In this document: piece after piece, positions 24 through 14,226 of the stretch
Layout of the letters: each line of letters opens with the position of its first letter
Numbering within the stretch: the first letter of the stretch is position 1
IMG/VR virus record: IMGVR_UViG_2695420651_000023
Span: 1 to 14,562 of that record
Source of the DNA: a virus
Taxonomy: Duplodnaviria > Heunggongvirae > Uroviricota > Caudoviricetes
DNA: 14,562 nt
Direction: 5' to 3' (one strand)
Position numbers and translations under genes: made by a program
Notes under the pieces: generated by a model
The model's input: the letters and a program-made list of their open reading frames with translations, nothing else
Told to the model about the DNA's origin: nothing
The model's database searches: none

Positions 24-701
24 ATGCTTCCATCAGAAACGATGATCTGGCAGCCTGAGTTCACAGATAAAACACTCTCCAGGAAAACCGGGGCGGTTCA
101 TTTTGCTGCTCTACTTCCGGGGTTTTTGGCACTCAATAATTCTGTATGGGCAAGTGATTTGCCTGGTATGACTCTTAATGAACATGATTTAGTGATAGCC
201 CCACTTAACACCGAAGTTCCATTCTACATTGCAGGGCATCGCAGTCATAGCTCCCATCGGAGCCATAGTTCTCACCGTTCATCATCAGGTGGCGGGTACT
301 ATGGTGGCAGCACTCCCTATTATCCAAAAACATACAGCTCACCAAGTTCATCTGGGTCTTCAAGTTCAGGAACAAGTCCCTCATCGTCCTCTTCCTCTGT
401 GCGTTCGCTTCGTTCTAACGACAATAACAACTCTACTACTACGAATTCTGTTGGAACTACAGAAGCTAACCGTGCAAGTAATGGGCTGACTTCTGGTACA
501 GAGAAGCGTAAGCGCTTAATCATGCGGGTTCAATTCGCTTTGCTGGACAAAGATTATTACAACGGGAATATTGACGGCATAATGGGGCCTTCCACAAGGC
601 AGTCAATAAAAAATTATCGCATTGCGAACGGACTACCAGTGCCCTCAAGTGAAACCTTGGATATACAGTTGTTAAATTCATTAAGTATTTTAGCTCGATA
701 A
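24..701 (+). CDS. secreted His-Xaa-Ser-repeat protein with Ser-rich linker and C-terminal peptidoglycan-binding (PG_binding_1-like) domain
   Basis: N-terminal hydrophobic stretch AVHFAALLPGFLALNNSVWA followed by SD (signal-peptide-like, AXA-type site). Repeat HRSHSSHRSHSSHRSSS. Long S/T/G/N-rich low-complexity linker. C-terminus DGIMGPSTRQSIKNYRIANGLPV resembles PG-binding domain. Reading frame is open upstream to the window edge, so the true start could be 24, 42, or outside the window. Confidence 0.6.
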   Translation: MLPSETMIWQPEFTDKTLSRKTGAVHFAALLPGFLALNNSVWASDLPGMTLNEHDLVIAPLNTEVPFYIAGHRSHSSHRSHSSHRSSSGGGYYGGSTPYYPKTYSSPSSSGSSSSGTSPSSSSSSVRSLRSNDNNNSTTTNSVGTTEANRASNGLTSGTEKRKRLIMRVQFALLDKDYYNGNIDGIMGPSTRQSIKNYRIANGLPVPSSETLDIQLLNSLSILAR

Positions 702-769: not shown

Positions 770-2581
770 ATGTCAGTCAGCTATAACATATATAGAATGC
801 CATATAAGAGTCTTCCAGAATTGACAAAAAAAATCATTAAAGAAGGGCTTGTCGAACAAAAAACTATTCTACATCAATCTTATCAACTCAAATTTTATTT
901 TTCTGATAAATTAAAAGGAAATGAAGTATGGTGGTGGGATGTTTTTAGTGATTTCTTCAATGAAGAAATTGAAAAGCCTCATAATATATTCTATTTTGGC
1001 CTGCTAATAGGATTTAAAGAAAAGGACCCTGAGAATTGCTATCTTATCAGTCTTGGTAAATCACATTTTTATCTCAGCAAGTTTATTGAAGCAGACTTTG
1101 GGCTGAATGTGGCAATGCGTATAGCTAATGATGAAAATATTTTACTCAAGAAAAGCAGATTCTTTTGTGGGGGAAAGAGTCAGGAGGCATCCTCATACTC
1201 ACAGTTTGTTCAAGGAGCATATTTTCCTGGCGAATCCATCGAGCATCTCAAAACAAAAGCCAAAGAAACTGACAAGTGGGGATGTAATAATATAACTTTT
1301 TCTGATTCAATTCAGCTAAGTTTGGATGGTGCTCCTACTGCATTAGTCGATGTTTTCAATGATATTGATTCTTCGTTGGCAACCAAAGAGAAAATCGAAT
1401 TTCCTAAATCGGAAAAAATCACTGACGAGTCAAAGATAGATGAGCTTGATAATTGTCTACTTCAATCGATCATTACAGATGATGCAAAAGTTATTATTGA
1501 TGAGATTCAATCTTTTGGTGCCTCTATTGTAATTAATAATTCTTTGACATTTTTTAAATTGCACACAAAAGTTGAGGGGAGTGGAAAGTATCTTCAATCA
1601 TCAGATAAAATTAATGACATAAAAATAGCAGATGTAAAGAAATTCATAAAAAATAACAACATAAAAGATGTCAATAAAGTTTTTGTTAAGATAACTAATG
1701 AAAATAACAGTGGTCATACAGCCTCGTTAAAAGAAATATTGAGCATTACTTATAGCGAGGGCAGCGAGCACTTCTTCCTTAAGAGGGGAGGATGGAGTCG
1801 ATTTAACTCTGCTTTTATGAAGTATTTGTCTACTTCTTTAGCCAGTATAAAATTTGAGGTTAAAGATGCTCTTAAGGAAGACGACTTCAAAGTATGGCAA
1901 GCTGAAAAAATAAAACAAATCGCAGAAGGAACTTCTAAAGACAAATTAGAATATAGAGAATATTATTTTAATGAAAAGATGTCTGATGAGAAAGGTTATA
2001 TACTTCTAGATCGCCAGCTAAAAAAAATACCATCCTTACGTGATAATGGCAAGGACTACAATGTTGAAGTTGCAGATCTTTATAAAAATGGAGAGATTAT
2101 TGCTGTAAAGATATCAGATAAACCGCATGATCTAATTTATAATATTGAACAGTCAAAAACCACAATTCAAACTATAGTAAGAGGAGTAGTAAAATTTGAA
2201 GAGACAATTACTGATGTGGTTTTATGGATCTCAACTACTACAAAAGCTAAAAAATTAATTGACATCAATTCTATTCAATTTTTATTAGCGGTTCAAACTT
2301 GGAAGGAAGTTGTTGAAGGATTTAATCTGAAACCAAAGATATATTATTCACATCACGATAAACCCCAAAAGAAAAAGGGAAAGAAAAAAACGCATCTTAA
2401 ATCTGAACTTAGAATTGGTTATGGAGAAAGATATCAGGTTATAGCGTCTCAGTATCGCTCCAATATTTGTGTGGATTATGTATCACCGATACTACCAAAA
2501 TTATTATGTTTTAGGTATGGTGATTTACCGCCATACCTCTTTTGTATTTATCTCGCAATGATGTTGTTTACTTTTGTTTAA
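770..2581 (+). CDS. hypothetical protein, 603 aa, AT-rich orphan; candidate defence/abortive-infection protein
   Basis: Long uninterrupted ORF with SD GAGG 7 nt before the ATG. K/N/I-rich composition and very low GC. No TM segments and no catalytic motif (Walker A, HNH, RT YxDD) recognisable by eye. Confidence 0.7.
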   Translation: MSVSYNIYRMPYKSLPELTKKIIKEGLVEQKTILHQSYQLKFYFSDKLKGNEVWWWDVFSDFFNEEIEKPHNIFYFGLLIGFKEKDPENCYLISLGKSHFYLSKFIEADFGLNVAMRIANDENILLKKSRFFCGGKSQEASSYSQFVQGAYFPGESIEHLKTKAKETDKWGCNNITFSDSIQLSLDGAPTALVDVFNDIDSSLATKEKIEFPKSEKITDESKIDELDNCLLQSIITDDAKVIIDEIQSFGASIVINNSLTFFKLHTKVEGSGKYLQSSDKINDIKIADVKKFIKNNNIKDVNKVFVKITNENNSGHTASLKEILSITYSEGSEHFFLKRGGWSRFNSAFMKYLSTSLASIKFEVKDALKEDDFKVWQAEKIKQIAEGTSKDKLEYREYYFNEKMSDEKGYILLDRQLKKIPSLRDNGKDYNVEVADLYKNGEIIAVKISDKPHDLIYNIEQSKTTIQTIVRGVVKFEETITDVVLWISTTTKAKKLIDINSIQFLLAVQTWKEVVEGFNLKPKIYYSHHDKPQKKKGKKKTHLKSELRIGYGERYQVIASQYRSNICVDYVSPILPKLLCFRYGDLPPYLFCIYLAMMLFTFV

Positions 2582-2984
2582 GTCTTCTAAGCTTCATACT
2601 TTCTAATGAGAATAATAATAGAGTTGTGCTGTATATAAAACCAGAGTTAGTTAATAACTTTAAATTTAATGCTTCAGGATTTTCACTGAGAAAATGAAAG
2701 GCATAAACTAAGTATACAGCTAAAGCAGCCGTTCCAATTGTTGGTCCAATATCGCCTTGATCATGAGGTTCAAGGTTTACATTGAATTTAAAGATTAGCC
2801 ATTCAAATCCCCAAGTAAAAAAAACAACTAATATCATGGCTGCGAATAATTTCGCGATGTTATCTGCTGATGGATTCATCAGAACAGATTGTTTCTGAAA
2901 AAATTCACAAAGTGAGAGTCCGAAAAAAATAAAAAAAAGTGGTCTGGAACTAAATTTTTCAAAAACTTTGAATAGGGTTTCCAT
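2568..2984 (-). CDS. small integral membrane protein, 138 aa, about 4 predicted TM helices
   Basis: Four hydrophobic stretches (LFFIFFGLSLCEFF, AAMILVVFFTWGFEWLIF, IGTAALAVYLVYAFHFL, IYSTTLLLFSL). Starts 38 bp downstream of the int stop on the same strand. Its 3' end overlaps the convergent 603-aa gene by 14 bp. Confidence 0.55.
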   Translation of the reverse strand: METLFKVFEKFSSRPLFFIFFGLSLCEFFQKQSVLMNPSADNIAKLFAAMILVVFFTWGFEWLIFKFNVNLEPHDQGDIGPTIGTAALAVYLVYAFHFLSENPEALNLKLLTNSGFIYSTTLLLFSLESMKLRRLKQK

Positions 2985-3022
2985 TTTCTTTACCTTCAGG
3001 ATTATATTAGCTATTCTGATAC

Positions 3023-4252
3023 TTAGGCTACCAGAGCATTTGATCTTTGAGCTTGAACGTAATCACTCCACCATTGCATCAAACTCTGTCGCTCTATCAG
3101 ATATTCTGCACGATTGTATGCTGCGATAATTTCATCTTTTTTCGAGTGGGCAAGCGCTGCCTCAAGAACTTCAGCTCTGAATTTACCAGACTCCTCTGCC
3201 GCTGTTCGCGCAATAGAACGCATACCGTGAGCTACAAGCTCGCCTCCGAACCCCATTCGGATGATAGCTGCGTTGGCTGTTTGTTCATGCATATGATTAA
3301 GAGGCGCTTTAATGCTGGGGAAAACCCATTCTCTATGCCCACTTATTGATTTCATTAATTCAAGGATGCGCAAAGCTTCTTTACTCAAAGGAACTTTGTG
3401 AGGCTTTTTCATTTTCATGAAATCAGCAGGAATGTTCCAAATGCTGTTGGTTGTATCAATATCAGACCATCTTGCGCGAACGGCTTCACCCGGACGAACC
3501 CATGTCAACAATTGCCATTCAATTAGCATACGTGTTTCCAACCGGATTGACGCATTCGTCAAAGATTCCATAAACCTTGGCAATTCGCTTGGGGGAAGGG
3601 CAGGCATATTTTGCTTTTTTGGTTTACTGAATCTTTGACCAAGGTTGTCAGCCGGGTTGAACTCAATAAGTTCTTCAGTAGCTGCCCACCTGAAGATTTC
3701 ATTCAGACGTGAAATGATACGGCGTAGAGTTTCCAATACGCCTCGTTGCTTAATAGGATCAAGGTGTTGTTTTAAGAGCTTAGGCCGGATCTCATTGATA
3801 GGGACATTACCCAGACCAGGAAAGACATTTCTCTCTAAGCTGCGCCAGATGTCTGCTGCATGGTCTTGTGAGATACCTGATGTCTTTACCTTCTCATCTA
3901 ACCATTTCCGCGCTACGGCTTGGAGAGTGTGCTCAGTAGCACTCTTTAATGCCTTCGCCTTATCGTTGTTATGGATTTGTGGATCAACACCATTTGCCAG
4001 AAAGGAAAGATATTCATCACGTAAGGCTCTGGCTCTTGCCAGTGTAAGGTGAGGATAGGTCCCAAGGCTCATTTTGGTTCTTTTTTTACTCACTGGCACT
4101 GCATACCTGAAATACCAATTCTTCTTTCCTCCTTTCGAGAGGGGAGCGATTCGTAGTATCAAACCATCTCCGTCAAACAAGTTGATTTCTTTGTCGGCTG
4201 GCTTGGTGCTTTTGATTTCAGTGTCAGTGAGCTTCTTAGCGATTTTTGCCAT
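3023..4252 (-). CDS. int: tyrosine recombinase, P4-family integrase (N-terminal arm-binding domain)
   Basis: N-terminus MAKIAKKLTDTEIKSTKPADKEINLFDGDGLILRI...WYFRY is typical of P4/CP4-57 IntA-type integrases. Start moved from 4294 to the ATG at 4252, which has SD GAGGG 7 nt upstream. C-terminal catalytic region contains R...H..R and a Tyr-containing segment. Confidence 0.9.
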   Translation of the reverse strand: MAKIAKKLTDTEIKSTKPADKEINLFDGDGLILRIAPLSKGGKKNWYFRYAVPVSKKRTKMSLGTYPHLTLARARALRDEYLSFLANGVDPQIHNNDKAKALKSATEHTLQAVARKWLDEKVKTSGISQDHAADIWRSLERNVFPGLGNVPINEIRPKLLKQHLDPIKQRGVLETLRRIISRLNEIFRWAATEELIEFNPADNLGQRFSKPKKQNMPALPPSELPRFMESLTNASIRLETRMLIEWQLLTWVRPGEAVRARWSDIDTTNSIWNIPADFMKMKKPHKVPLSKEALRILELMKSISGHREWVFPSIKAPLNHMHEQTANAAIIRMGFGGELVAHGMRSIARTAAEESGKFRAEVLEAALAHSKKDEIIAAYNRAEYLIERQSLMQWWSDYVQAQRSNALVA

Positions 4253-4349
4253 TTTGGGACCCTCGGTTTTTGGACCCTTCTTAGTGGGTCTCATTCAGGG
4301 TGCCATAACTCGTAGTTCTCAGCAATTCTCACTGGACGACAATAGACGT

Positions 4350-4381
4350 AAAAAAGCCCGCAGAGCTTGTGCTGTGCGGGC
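4350..4381 (-). terminator. rho-independent terminator on the minus strand, between the ssrA fragment and int
   Basis: Plus strand reads AAAAAA + GCCCGCAGAGC + TTGT + GCTGTGCGGGC (11-bp stem, one mismatch). On the minus strand this is hairpin followed by TTTTTT. Confidence 0.5.
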
Positions 4382-4417
4382 TTAGTAGACTTCATTGTAC
4401 TTCAAACAACTAAAAAG

Positions 4418-4464
4418 TGGTGGAGCTGGCGGGAGTTGAACCCGCGTCCGAAATTCCTACATAC
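4418..4464 (-). repeat. ssrA: 3'-terminal ~47 nt of ssrA (tmRNA), att core repeat; not a complete tmRNA gene
   Basis: Reverse complement reads ATGTAGGAATTTCGGACGCGGGTTCAACTCCCGCCAGCTCCACCA, the acceptor/T-arm end of enterobacterial tmRNA as I recall it. Sequence further upstream (4465 onward) is unrelated to tmRNA. Confidence 0.8.
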
Positions 4465-4612
4465 CATTTTTACCATAACAAAAACATTAAGTTTCGTTTA
4501 AAATCAGTCTGTTATTGTTATTTTGTGTTTGTCCGTTTTACGCTTTTTTAATGTTCTGCCGCCAAAATGCCGCCACATTGTAGGTATTAAGTCTGCTATT
4601 TATCACCTGTTG

Positions 4613-5509
4613 TTAAGACACGCGGGCATCGTACCCATACAAGTCTTGAAAGCATGAGTAAAACAATTCTTGATTGTTGAGTTCGCCCTTTGTTTCCGGT
4701 ATTTCACTCTGTAGAAAATTTTTATTAATTGTCCACTCAATAGCTAAAGTATTAGTGTAGTTTGTTGAACTACTAATTTTAGCATTATTAGGATGAAAAA
4801 GTTGCTGTATAAATTCAATATCTGAATCAAGTGAAATAAAATGTATGTTTGCATTATCTTTTAATCTATCATCAAATCTAAGTTGGATAGTGGTTTTGTA
4901 ATGATTAAAATCAGCAATTGGGTTATAAGATGAAAAATTTTTACTTTTAAATTTTAATATCTTCTCAGCTCGTTGGCTTCCAAAGATATACATCAGAGCT
5001 ACAATTGTAAACGGTTGGTTTTTAAATTCATTAAACTCGTTTACTATCTCTTTAAACTCATAATATGTATTCTCTCGTTGTTCTACTTTCTTTGTTTCCC
5101 CTATTTTTTCTTGTAGCTTATCAAGGAATTTTGTTTTTTTATCTATTAATCTGTCAGTTTCTTTTTCATATATTATTTTTGATAGTTTATTTACATTGGA
5201 TGTTAGGAAATCATAATCAGTGTTAGCTTCTTTAATAAATGATTTTACAATTTCACTATCCTCTATAATTAATTTTCTTATTTTTTTATTAGGTGTTTTT
5301 ATGATTTCTAATTTGCCGTTACTGTCAAGTTTTTTATGGGTTTTTCCTTCTATTATTGATAGTAAAGGTGAGAAAGTATTTCCTTTGATATCTAATGCTT
5401 TTAATTTATTAAGCATATCAATTCTATTAGGTTCTGGGATATTAGAAGAATTGTTGTGCTTATTCATTAGATCAATTATGTTTCGATCTAAAAGGTAGAG
5501 CTCTGTCAT
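4613..5509 (-). CDS. hypothetical protein, 298 aa, AT-rich moron between prophage int and att
   Basis: ORF begins 12 bp downstream of the int stop on the same strand. K/N/I/E-rich, very low GC. No TM segments or recognisable motifs. Confidence 0.7.
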   Translation of the reverse strand: MTELYLLDRNIIDLMNKHNNSSNIPEPNRIDMLNKLKALDIKGNTFSPLLSIIEGKTHKKLDSNGKLEIIKTPNKKIRKLIIEDSEIVKSFIKEANTDYDFLTSNVNKLSKIIYEKETDRLIDKKTKFLDKLQEKIGETKKVEQRENTYYEFKEIVNEFNEFKNQPFTIVALMYIFGSQRAEKILKFKSKNFSSYNPIADFNHYKTTIQLRFDDRLKDNANIHFISLDSDIEFIQQLFHPNNAKISSSTNYTNTLAIEWTINKNFLQSEIPETKGELNNQELFYSCFQDLYGYDARVS

Positions 5510-5521
5510 AATAATTACCTT

Positions 5522-6547
5522 TTAATTAGTAGAAAAAAGAGTGGCTAAAGGATTTTTTGTCACCGCATCTTCAAGATGCTCTGGTGCGAAATGAGCATAA
5601 ATCATGGTCATTTTTATATCGGTATGGCCTAAAATTTCTTTAAGCACAAGTATATTACCGCCATTCATCATAAAGTGGCTGGCGAATGTATGGCGTAGCA
5701 CGTGGGTGCATTGTCCTTCTGGCAGTTCGATACCGGCCCGCTTTACTGCCCGCTCAAAGGCTTTTCTGCATGGTGTGAATAATTTCCCTCTATTTTTGGG
5801 AAGTTCGTCATACAGATCCTGAGATATTGGCACGGTACGGTTTTTCTTGCCCTTCGTCTTGGTGTATGTGATGCGGTATTTTGACAACTGGTGTCCCTGC
5901 AGATTTTCTGCTTCACTCCAGCGTGCTCCGGTGGCCAGGCATATTTTTGCAATCATCAGCAGGCTGGGGCTTTGAGAATCTGCGCAGGCATCCAACAGGC
6001 GCTTGATTTCGTCCATGGAAAGAAAGGCCAGCTCACCTTCAGCAATTTTAAATGTAGGAAGTCCTGCCAGTGGGTTTGGTGCTGACCAGTGTCCCAGCTT
6101 TTTCAGTGTGCCAAAAACCGATGACAGGTTGCGTTGTTCAAGATTTACCGTGCGGGGCTTAACAGGCGACATAAGCGCGCCATCTTCATTTCGCACTTCA
6201 CCCTTTAGCCGTGCTTCCCGGTATTTCGTAAAATCACCGGCGGTCAGTTCTGAAGCGATGGGATCGCCCAGACCATTACAGATAATTTTAAGTTTCGCCA
6301 TCAGGCGTTTGGGGTCAGCAAGCGTCTGCCCGTAAAGTGAGTACCATTGTTCAATCACTTCTGACAAATGTCGCCGATCTTCCTTTTCCCCCAGCCACGG
6401 TTTTTTGTTCACTTCTTCCATTGTGAAACGTTCAAACGCAATGGCTTCGCCTTTTGTCGCAAATTGTTTACGTACGCGTTTGCCATCTCGCCCGTTTGGG
6501 TAGCATTCACACAACCACTTTCCGTTCGGCTGTTTTCTGATCGTCAT
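5522..6547 (-). CDS. int: tyrosine integrase, P2/186 family
   Basis: N-terminus MTIRKQPNGKWLCECYPNGRDGKRVRKQFATKGEAIAFE resembles P2 Int. C-terminal HVLRHTFAS...GH...IYAH catalytic box. Start lies 2 bp after the cI stop. Confidence 0.9.
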   Translation of the reverse strand: MTIRKQPNGKWLCECYPNGRDGKRVRKQFATKGEAIAFERFTMEEVNKKPWLGEKEDRRHLSEVIEQWYSLYGQTLADPKRLMAKLKIICNGLGDPIASELTAGDFTKYREARLKGEVRNEDGALMSPVKPRTVNLEQRNLSSVFGTLKKLGHWSAPNPLAGLPTFKIAEGELAFLSMDEIKRLLDACADSQSPSLLMIAKICLATGARWSEAENLQGHQLSKYRITYTKTKGKKNRTVPISQDLYDELPKNRGKLFTPCRKAFERAVKRAGIELPEGQCTHVLRHTFASHFMMNGGNILVLKEILGHTDIKMTMIYAHFAPEHLEDAVTKNPLATLFSTN

Positions 6548-6549
6548 TA

Positions 6550-7182
6550 TTAGATGCTCTTAATCACTTTTACCACACGCCCTACAACGGCTACGTCATC
6601 AACTGCACATTCAAAGGTTGTTTCTTCCTGATGAACAACAAGCTTATTTCCGGGAATTCGAGCTACTTTTACGATGCTTTTCACTCCATCAATATCAACA
6701 AGCCAAGAGCCATTACTGATCTGTTTTACAGATACATCAACAATAAAACTTTCTGTTGTCGTTTGTATGAATAGATAGTTTGACGAATCGCCCTCAACCA
6801 ACCTGCTATCTAATAAAATTTCGTCATATGATTGAAGTTCACCATTTCTTAATTCTGTGTATTTGATACTGGGAGCTACGATTTTAGAAAGTGGTCTAAT
6901 TGTGACGTCATTATCATTTTTGAGAATGTTTGAGTCACAGTTATCTGCATACATATCACCCTGTCCGGTTGCCAACCAAAGAAGCGAGATCCCGGTTTCT
7001 AGAGCACATTGAATTACCCACTCTGCTGGAAAGCTATCTCTTAAGTATCTGTTTGCCATGGTGCTTTTAGATACTTTTAAGTGTTCGCAGAGTTGTTGGC
7101 GTGAGCTGAAATTGTAGGCTTTTATCAGCCTGTTGATGGCATCACGCCCCCCACTATCGTTTCCACCCTTGATTAGACTCAT
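6550..7182 (-). CDS. cI: CI-type immunity repressor (186-like), N-terminal HTH
   Basis: Start moved from 7314 to the ATG at 7182 (MSLIKGGN...), which has a G-rich SD. HTH-like segment QQLCEHLKVSKSTMANRYL. Sits immediately upstream of int and divergent from the apl-like gene. Confidence 0.75.
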   Translation of the reverse strand: MSLIKGGNDSGGRDAINRLIKAYNFSSRQQLCEHLKVSKSTMANRYLRDSFPAEWVIQCALETGISLLWLATGQGDMYADNCDSNILKNDNDVTIRPLSKIVAPSIKYTELRNGELQSYDEILLDSRLVEGDSSNYLFIQTTTESFIVDVSVKQISNGSWLVDIDGVKSIVKVARIPGNKLVVHQEETTFECAVDDVAVVGRVVKVIKSI

Positions 7183-7300
7183 AATCAAACCCCCCCTGAC
7201 GCATATAAAATGAGATCTTAATATCCATTCATGGTTTGAAAAGCAAAACCAAACCACATAAAACGAGATGATACGATTACAAACTAAGAGATACTGCACT
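7183..7300. promoter_or_regulatory. lysis/lysogeny switch region between cI and the apl-like gene (promoters and operators)
   Basis: 118-bp AT-rich divergent intergenic region. Inverted repeat TGGTTT-N8-AAACCA at 7232..7251. TTGAAA hexamer at 7236..7241. Confidence 0.4.
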
Positions 7301-7549
7301 ATGAGCAACGACATTTCAATTCGTGTACCAAAAGTGATGGCGACACCAGCTGAGTTCGCGGAATGGGAAGGCCGCTCTCGCGGTTCGGTATATCAAATGA
7401 TTCATAATGGAAAACTCGCTAAATTCTTGGAAAGAAAAGAAAAACCGAAAGACAGAGTATGTATACGTTACCTTGAGTACAAAAAGGAACAAGTCAGGAA
7501 AAACATGGGCCAATCCAATTTCAACTTTAATGTCATCGTTGGTGACTAA
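7301..7549 (+). CDS. Apl/Cox-like small HTH protein (excisionase/transcriptional repressor)
   Basis: 82 aa; HTH-like segment ATPAEFAEWEGRSRGSVYQMIHNGKL. First rightward gene opposite cI. Start choice (7301 versus 7268 or 7337) is uncertain. Confidence 0.55.
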   Translation: MSNDISIRVPKVMATPAEFAEWEGRSRGSVYQMIHNGKLAKFLERKEKPKDRVCIRYLEYKKEQVRKNMGQSNFNFNVIVGD

Positions 7550-12799: not shown

Positions 12800-12988
12800 A
12801 TGCAGGACTATTTTTTGGAGTCTTTGAAGCTCCAGCGCATTGATTTTTTTCTTAAGCTTGTAGCGGCTAGTGAGTGTAGTGATGAAGAGAAGGGGCTGGC
12901 CCTGCAGTGGGTTTCTGAACTGACAGATGAACTCATGGCAAAAATCAGAACCCACGAATACAACCGCTCAATGGATGTCATCAGCTGA
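12800..12988 (+). CDS. small SOS-operon protein, 62 aa; candidate Tum-like antirepressor (N-terminal part)
   Basis: AGGAGG SD 6 nt upstream. First gene after the LexA box. Position corresponds to 186 tum. Confidence 0.5.
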   Translation: MQDYFLESLKLQRIDFFLKLVAASECSDEEKGLALQWVSELTDELMAKIRTHEYNRSMDVIS

Positions 12989-12998
12989 GGTGACTTTT

Positions 12999-13232
12999 AT
13001 GCGCATTGAAATAATGATCGATAAAGAGCAGAAGATTAGCCAGTCTACCCTGGACGCTCTGGAGTCAGAGCTTTACCGCAACCTGCAACCCATCTATCCC
13101 AAGACAGCTATCCGCATCCGTAAAGGGTCGGCAAACGGCGTTGAGCTGAGTGGCTTAAAGCTTGATGAAGACAAAAAGCGGGTGATGGAAATTATGCAGC
13201 AGGTTTGGGAAGACGACAGCTGGCTGCACTAA
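12999..13232 (+). CDS. DinI-family protein, 77 aa
   Basis: MRIEIMIDK...LDALESEL...DEDKKRVMEIMQQVWEDDSW aligns by eye with E. coli DinI (MRIEVTIAK...IDALAGEL...KEDKQRISEILQETWESADDW). Start at the ATG at 12999 with SD GAGGTG. Confidence 0.8.
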   Translation: MRIEIMIDKEQKISQSTLDALESELYRNLQPIYPKTAIRIRKGSANGVELSGLKLDEDKKRVMEIMQQVWEDDSWLH

Positions 13233-13305
13233 GGAACGTTCCTGATGTAAGAACTTGATTCTGACGTCAGCAAGGTTGAACAACGAGAGTAGCGAGGCGT
13301 TAGCC

Positions 13306-13566
13306 ATGGGTAAAAAAGACAGTAATCACCAGATTATTTATCGGGGCCAGGTGCTGGAACGGTTTACCCCTGGCGGCTGGGTCTTCTTTCAACGCCCAAA
13401 GGAGTGTGGCGGAGGTTTTTGGTTGGGCCGCACCTATGAAGACTGCTTCTGGCTTGAGCTGGAATTCCCCGTTTCGCTATATGACGGCCTGGAGTTTTTG
13501 ATGGAAGTCACCAGGGTAGAGCAGAGAAGTGATGAGGTTGACGCGAATTATTCCCTGTTTGATTAA
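13306..13566 (+). CDS. hypothetical protein, 86 aa
   Basis: ATG at 13306 with GAGG SD; the track's upstream extension uses a TTG start. No recognisable motifs. Confidence 0.5.
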   Translation: MGKKDSNHQIIYRGQVLERFTPGGWVFFQRPKECGGGFWLGRTYEDCFWLELEFPVSLYDGLEFLMEVTRVEQRSDEVDANYSLFD

Positions 13567-13585
13567 AAATGTATTAGCTTATAAT
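13559..13585 (+). promoter_or_regulatory. sigma70-like promoter for the 203-aa gene
   Basis: -35 TTGATT (13559..13564), 15-bp spacer, perfect -10 TATAAT (13580..13585), about 30 bp upstream of the ATG at 13615. Confidence 0.45.
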
Positions 13586-13614
13586 GGAATACTATTTTTG
13601 CAGGTGGGGGCGCA

Positions 13615-14226
13615 ATGGATTTAGTCTTTAAAATTCTGGCTTCGTTGGGTGGGGTGTCTTTTGTTGCATCTGGCATATTTGTTTGGATCGGGAAAGTTTA
13701 TTTAGAAAGATATAAGTCGCGGCTAAACAAAGATATTGCTGAATTTCAATCACAACTGAGTGCAACTAATGAAAGAATAAAGGCTAAGTTAGACAATTCT
13801 GTTTATGTAACGAAAGCGTATTTTGATAAGGAGTTATCAGCATATAGTCTCATTTGGAATTCGATGTTTGAAACCAGAGAAAGCGTGCTTAAGCTGAGGC
13901 CTGCGCTGGATCATTTTGACCCCAACGAACCATTTGAAGAGAGAAAATTTAGAAGGTTGAAAGTTTTTTTCGATGCATTTAATACTTTTGTTACAAGTGT
14001 TGAGTCTAACAAACCGTTCATCTCACCAGAGGTTTATATAATCTTGGACCGTTTCCGGAAGGAATGCCTTTCAGAGTCAATATCGTTTCAGCATGGCGAT
14101 CCAGAATTTGACTGGCAAAATTATTGGAAAGAGGCAGAGTTGAACCGTACAACCATCACCAAGCTTTTTGATGAGACGTGTGATGCAATTCGAGACAGGA
14201 TGCACACATTAACTGTGGTTACGTAG
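13615..14226 (+). CDS. membrane-anchored hypothetical protein, 203 aa (single N-terminal TM helix); candidate defence moron
   Basis: N-terminal hydrophobic helix ILASLGGVSFVASGIFVWIG, then a charged/coiled-coil-like region. Own promoter and strong SD AGGTGGGGG. Lower GC than the phage core. Confidence 0.7.
   Translation: MDLVFKILASLGGVSFVASGIFVWIGKVYLERYKSRLNKDIAEFQSQLSATNERIKAKLDNSVYVTKAYFDKELSAYSLIWNSMFETRESVLKLRPALDHFDPNEPFEERKFRRLKVFFDAFNTFVTSVESNKPFISPEVYIILDRFRKECLSESISFQHGDPEFDWQNYWKEAELNRTTITKLFDETCDAIRDRMHTLTVVT

Follow-up and report, generated by a model that had tools for sequence, protein, structure and literature searches.

An AT-rich cargo gene between a P2/186-type int and its attachment site: a candidate anti-phage protein with a possible PIN-like core

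Organization of the locus

The window (the whole stretch of DNA analysed, 14,562 nucleotides of IMG/VR record IMGVR_UViG_2695420651_000023) carries on its minus strand a repressor gene, an integrase gene, a cargo gene and an attachment site, in that order. The 186-type cI repressor (6550–7182, minus strand; Phage_CI_repr and Phage_CI_C domains, 210 aa) has its probable start at 7182. The mechanical cI open reading frame covers 6550–7314 on the same strand (254 aa); a GGGGGG-ATG start at 7182 agrees with the 210-aa cI of relatives, and the 44 codons upstream of it are probably not translated. The P2/186-type tyrosine integrase gene, int (5522–6547, minus strand), has Int_N and Phage_integrase domains and ends in a TAA stop at 5522–5524. 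It is separated by a 12-nt spacer (5510–5521, minus strand), which contains an AAGG Shine-Dalgarno sequence (5518–5521), from the cargo gene, denoted ORF298 (4613–5509, minus strand; ATG at 5507–5509), whose 298 codons specify a soluble 298-aa protein of an unannotated family.

ORF298 is a genuine gene under purifying selection, because its stop-free run is improbable and its dN/dS is low. The chance of no stop across 298 codons is about 1e-12 at its base composition, the longest stop-free stretch at this position is 302 codons (the maximum in 2000 shuffles of the segment is 149), and dN/dS against homologues is 0.14–0.23. The GC content is 27.6% (GC3 22%), compared with 47.3% in int and 43% in the whole window. 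The 35 kDa product has a GRAVY of −0.64 and no transmembrane helix, the highest 19-residue Kyte–Doolittle mean being 0.94. A reading of this DNA from sequence only had described a very AT-rich 298-aa gene between int and att, starting 12 bp past the int stop on the same strand and encoding a protein without a transmembrane helix, and was right on each count. A hidden RNA gene was looked for inside the cassette and none was found.

The end of ORF298 lies about 150 nt from the att core (4418–4462, minus strand), the 45-nt 3′ end of ssrA (tmRNA). We regard this element as the displaced host copy at the prophage boundary because only the 3′ end of ssrA is present, ARAGORN finds no complete tmRNA in the window, and the host ssrA terminator (4354–4368, minus strand) and a second integrase follow. 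Rfam gives a partial tmRNA match at 4418–4509 (E = 1.4e-10), ssrA is annotated at the corresponding position in relatives from E. coli, and the same 45-nt core is present in 17 of the related loci searched as well as in two IMG/VR contigs described below. Rfam also gives a partial match to IsrM, a Salmonella island sRNA (4350–4493, minus strand; 67 bits, E = 8e-18, with the gathering score far higher at 376). This match overlaps the 3′ fragment of ssrA and its terminator; common ssrA-derived sequence is the probable cause. Direct repeats GTGGCGGCATTTTGGCGGCAG (4556–4576, minus strand), conserved in all sister prophages, are putative arm-type binding sites of Int.

Exchange of cassettes between int and att

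Complete E. coli genomes contain a sister prophage at ssrA that is 96% identical to the window until 4585 and 88% identical from 5549, with the 963 bp in between (4586–5548) replaced. Homology resumes only at 5549, therefore the last approximately nine int codons are part of the swapped segment. In an empty-slot relative (locus L013) direct repeats ATGGCGGCACTTTGGCGGCAG begin 3 nt past the int stop; the same repeats in the window (4556–4576) come after ORF298. The cassette therefore sits between the last approximately nine codons of int and the P arm, and att normally abuts int, as the sequence-only reading had stated for phages of this type.

That reading had also proposed a comparison of int–att spacing across related prophages. 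Among the best 60 E. coli matches the distance falls into discrete size classes, one of which is the empty slot. The contents, read from fetched examples of each distance class, are the following: no gene (L013); GapS1 (L012; NCBIfam NF047931, 428 bits); an HNH endonuclease; and members of phrog_7835 (400–420 aa), phrog_17460 (309–352 aa) and phrog_21256 (197–222 aa), three PHROG families without assigned function. At least six unrelated cargo families have been seen in the slot in addition to the empty state, GapS1 being the only named defence gene among them. Comparison of ORF298 with the other slot cargos revealed no kinship. The flanks of sister prophages whose slot is empty or holds unrelated genes are 82–88% identical. 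By these genome comparisons the int–att slot is shown to be a site of cassette exchange.

ORF298 lies within the element, flanked by the integrase and the att core, and has the position of a hotspot cargo gene. It had been called a moron, that is an inserted accessory and not a core phage gene, and the empty and alternatively filled slots between conserved flanks support this. Nor is it a standard gene of 186-like phages with a phage function, a finding that would have told against the moron reading: of 5426 complete E. coli genomes 186 have a related int, and neither variant of ORF298 occurs in any.

The sequenced isolate Cartapus (Peduoviridae) has the order cI–int–401-aa gene–[att]–exonuclease–ogr; the gene in its slot is therefore carried along in the virion genome. 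The phrog_7835-type gene of Cartapus is annotated as a putative RES/NAD+-binding protein. Between ogr and att, Cartapus has a 160-aa ‘putative exonuclease’ (L033, 2314–2796) with a weak match to the PADLOC candidate PDC-S48 (E = 1.7e-7), a hint that the flank of att towards ogr is a cargo slot too.

Transcription of ORF298

The 12-nt spacer between int and ORF298 leaves no room for a promoter. No terminator was found between cI, int and ORF298, the host ssrA terminator being the sole terminator-like site on this strand from cI to the next island. Most other cargo genes of the slot likewise start 1–13 nt past int. Because of the short spacer, the lack of an intervening terminator and the similar spacing of most sister cargos, we infer that ORF298 is co-transcribed with cI and int in the lysogen, which is plausible from this arrangement. 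The sequence-only reading had suggested the same, and with it a possible role in lysogenic conversion or superinfection exclusion. In the sense of Hendrix, ORF298 resembles a moron in its atypical composition (27.6% versus 47% GC) and in its presence or absence between conserved neighbours, as judged from empty-slot relatives. The promoter and terminator of its own that mark a classical Hendrix moron were not found: there is no specific promoter, and no terminator before that of host ssrA. Judged by this layout, ORF298 appears to be fused to the cI–int operon, unlike a classical moron.

Sequence and predicted structure of the ORF298 protein

The ORF298 protein has nothing above threshold in Pfam, PADLOC 2.0, NCBIfam (including its antiphage models) or PHROGs. 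Sequence and profile searches of the PDB with the ORF298 alignments returned noise only, and a Foldseek search of the PDB found nothing. The sequence-only reading recognized no motif and had suggested remote homology searches and structure prediction; its negative stands for the family libraries, and can be refined to a weak PIN-like signal. AlphaFold models are confident for the window protein (pLDDT 88, pTM 0.80) and for a Photorhabdus relative of about 22% identity (pLDDT 92.5). Both share an N-terminal strand–helix–helix–strand–helix unit, a long helical insert, and a helix–strand–helix unit with a β hairpin.

E54, G55, D200 and D228 do not vary across 60 sequences (18–46% identity), and L7-D8-R9-N10 is almost invariant. 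In the models D8 comes right after strand 1, E54 is in the helix after strand 2, D200 is at the start of the helix preceding the next core strand and D228 is just past that strand. So placed, D8, E54, D200 and D228 would follow the order of the four catalytic positions of PIN nucleases, which in Shigella VapC we take to be D7, E42, D98 and E119. The profile comparisons do not bring out this likeness. A Pfam scan of 60 relatives gave a single sub-threshold PIN_4 match, and scans of the family consensus and of five insert-deleted constructs gave no PIN match. With hhalign, the family profile scored a probability of <1% against Shigella VapC (sequence verified against 3tnd) and against a 20-sequence VapC alignment, the latter being a weak negative as that alignment is narrow (≥ 73% identity). 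ORF298 has no significant sequence or profile match to the PIN superfamily, and we do not file it as a member. A PIN-like core is nevertheless the most likely reading of the models, which we put forward tentatively. A Toprim (DxD) reading was rejected, as conservation of D230 does not extend to the wider family.

Occurrence of ORF298 homologues

A search of 5.8 billion proteins identified 12 close relatives, including an identical one from an E. coli draft genome. The cI–int–gene–ssrA core layout recurs, with relatives of 46–69% identity, in Klebsiella variicola, several Logan assemblies and two IMG/VR viral contigs. In these two contigs (L039, 3961–5891; L040, 1598–3528) Int is 94–95% identical to that of the window and the ORF298 homologue 68–69%; this sequence comparison suggests either allele swapping of ORF298-type cargo or divergence much faster than that of the neighbouring Int. 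ORF298 was not found in 50,697 phage records by tblastn, nor in 185,579 species-representative genomes (one per species) by a pattern scan from a narrow alignment.

Two other arrangements were observed. Several E. coli prophages (L003–L006, 6572–8897) carry two cargos in the slot, first a phrog_7835 gene (411 aa) that begins 9 nt past int and then, beyond a 193-nt gap, a 46%-identical ORF298 homologue. In L032 (1–1712) a 61%-identical homologue lies across the att core, on the ogr side, in the order tRNA-like 3′ end, terminator, TGGCAGCA repeats, about 300 bp of AT-rich DNA, the gene, and convergent ogr. The family can therefore fill either slot flanking att, and can have its own upstream region.

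An exhaustive profile search collects 195 clusters at 50% identity, nearly all of them stand-alone proteins of 260–300 aa and all unannotated. The family is sparse and proteobacterial, and is found on prophages, plasmids and small islets. In Photorhabdus the homologue is beside IS110, a RelB-like gene and SLATT_5/RVT_1; in Thauera it is amid the tra genes of a conjugative element; in Deefgea it adjoins putAbiC at the end of a P2-like prophage; and in Morganella it follows ssb as an orphan gene. Elsewhere homologues adjoin IS3 at the end of an AntA/DUF927 element, adjoin TacAT, are carried by Ralstonia and Paraburkholderia plasmids or form single-gene islets. The neighbours differ in every context examined, with no conserved partner gene and, in particular, no conserved small antitoxin gene adjoining the homologues as in VapBC-type modules.

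Other regions of the window

Past the ssrA fragment there is a second, tandem island (770–4294) with a P4/CP4-57-type integrase (3023–4294, minus strand), a 138-aa hydrophobic ORF (2568–2984, minus strand) and a 603-aa DUF6119 protein (770–2581, plus strand) that is AT-rich (32% GC) and has no PADLOC match. Homology of E. coli VG12A2 to the window begins only at 2396, and ATP-binding and response-regulator-receiver proteins replace DUF6119 there; from this comparison the island looks like another cargo-exchange site. Downstream of gpA (12927–14226) a DinI-like gene (12927–13232) is followed by a 103-aa ORF and a 203-aa ORF (13615–14226; approximately 38% GC). Both ORFs lack Pfam and PADLOC matches and are located where the main P2 gpA–portal defence hotspot is expected. 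A 225-aa protein (24–701, plus strand) that combines a long low-complexity region rich in Ser, Gly and His with a C-terminal peptidoglycan-binding domain (PG_binding_1, E = 6e-5) is probably the product of a host or island gene unconnected to ORF298.

Discussion

We propose that ORF298 is a horizontally acquired single-gene cargo of a P2-like (186/Fels-2-type, Peduoviridae) prophage in ssrA, where it fills the variable slot bounded by int and the attP arm. In the lysogen it would be transcribed with cI and int from the lysogenic promoter. Its product may have a PIN-like α/β core with D8, E54, D200 and D228, split by a helical insert of about 140 residues, a layout at which the structural models hint weakly; it could then be a metal-dependent nuclease with the insert as sensor or regulator. 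By association with GapS1, the product may be a stand-alone defence or abortive-infection protein that guards the lysogen from other phages. ORF298 is a reasonable candidate defence gene because sister prophages hold in the same slot a validated anti-phage gene, GapS1, a single-protein defence triggered by capsid protein (bioRxiv 10.1101/2023.03.28.534373). The explanation as a whole, from int–att cargo through lysogenic expression and a PIN-like nuclease to anti-phage defence, has in our analysis a little less than an even chance of being correct. A bolder version, that ORF298 typifies a new family of single-protein anti-phage nucleases with a diverged PIN-like core, a helical sensor, no antitoxin and cI–int expression that keeps defence on only in lysogeny, is somewhat unlikely.

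Cargo of the same slot could also serve other ends: counter-defence or inter-phage competition in lytic growth, addiction as a toxin-like selfish gene, or modulation of host physiology. Most genes of the int–att slot have no assigned function; one homologue sits amid tra genes on a conjugative element and others on plasmids, where anti-defence genes also occur; and the L032 copy on the ogr side of att, with some 300 bp of its own upstream DNA, means that expression need not follow lysogeny. However, ORF298 is tightly coupled to the lysogenic cI–int genes, the slot is shared with a validated defence gene, and the neighbours putAbiC, SLATT/RT and TacAT fit defence islands; no cognate antitoxin-like partner is present. 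We consider a non-defence role unlikely. The core might instead be Rossmann-like (HUP-type), binding nucleotides or aminoacyl-tRNA and modifying nucleotides or tRNA with no cleavage. This is improbable: the conserved columns are dominated by D, E and N and have no HIGH/KMSKS-like or glycine-rich nucleotide-binding motif, and PIN chains outnumber every other class and rank highest for the better model. A core function in integration or excision, as Int accessory or directionality factor, would suit a gene placed between int and the arm-type sites with operon-like coupling to int, but is nearly excluded by sister prophages that share this int and att yet leave the slot empty or carry unrelated genes there, and homologues outside prophages and absence from the 50,697 phage records and PHROGs speak against it as well.

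If ORF298 does defend the lysogen, the anti-phage repertoire gains another stand-alone family, and the little-studied P2-type int–att slot would hold mostly unrecognized systems. Its fusion to the cI–int operon would offer a simple model for defence genes expressed only in lysogeny, and the slot is a ready shortlist for functional screening. If it does not, ORF298 is an ordinary accessory gene in an already-described hotspot. Neither the hotspot nor the principle of single-gene defence carried by prophages is new; the gene family is unannotated and rare.

Comparison with known systems

The int–att interval has been reported as a minor P2 defence hotspot (NAR 2026; PMC13586616), accounting for 3% of P2 systems in a survey that counted recognizable systems only. 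ORF298 resembles the genes of this P2-like hotspot in lying inside the element, from int to att, with cargo that varies among related phages, and differs in matching no defence library.

The closest parallel in position is GapS1 (PD-(D/E)xK), which in sister prophages of E. coli (L012) fills the same slot and starts at the same 12-nt distance from int. It too is a stand-alone protein, presumed to combine its own sensor with a nuclease-type effector. However, GapS1 is 506 aa long versus 298 aa for ORF298, belongs to another fold class, and its model NF047931 does not match ORF298. From the PIN nucleases (VapC toxins; PF01850 and relatives) ORF298 is set apart by the lack of profile-level similarity, by the insert of about 140 residues that splits the core, by a predicted sheet that has no clear canonical β3 and ends in a hairpin, and by having no VapB-like antitoxin neighbour. 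The P2 exclusion genes old, tin and fun/Z are, like ORF298, AT-rich accessory genes, and are thought to act from the lysogen on other phages. They sit in the gpA–portal and tail-region hotspots and have their own promoters, whereas ORF298 lies beside att, apparently fused to cI–int.
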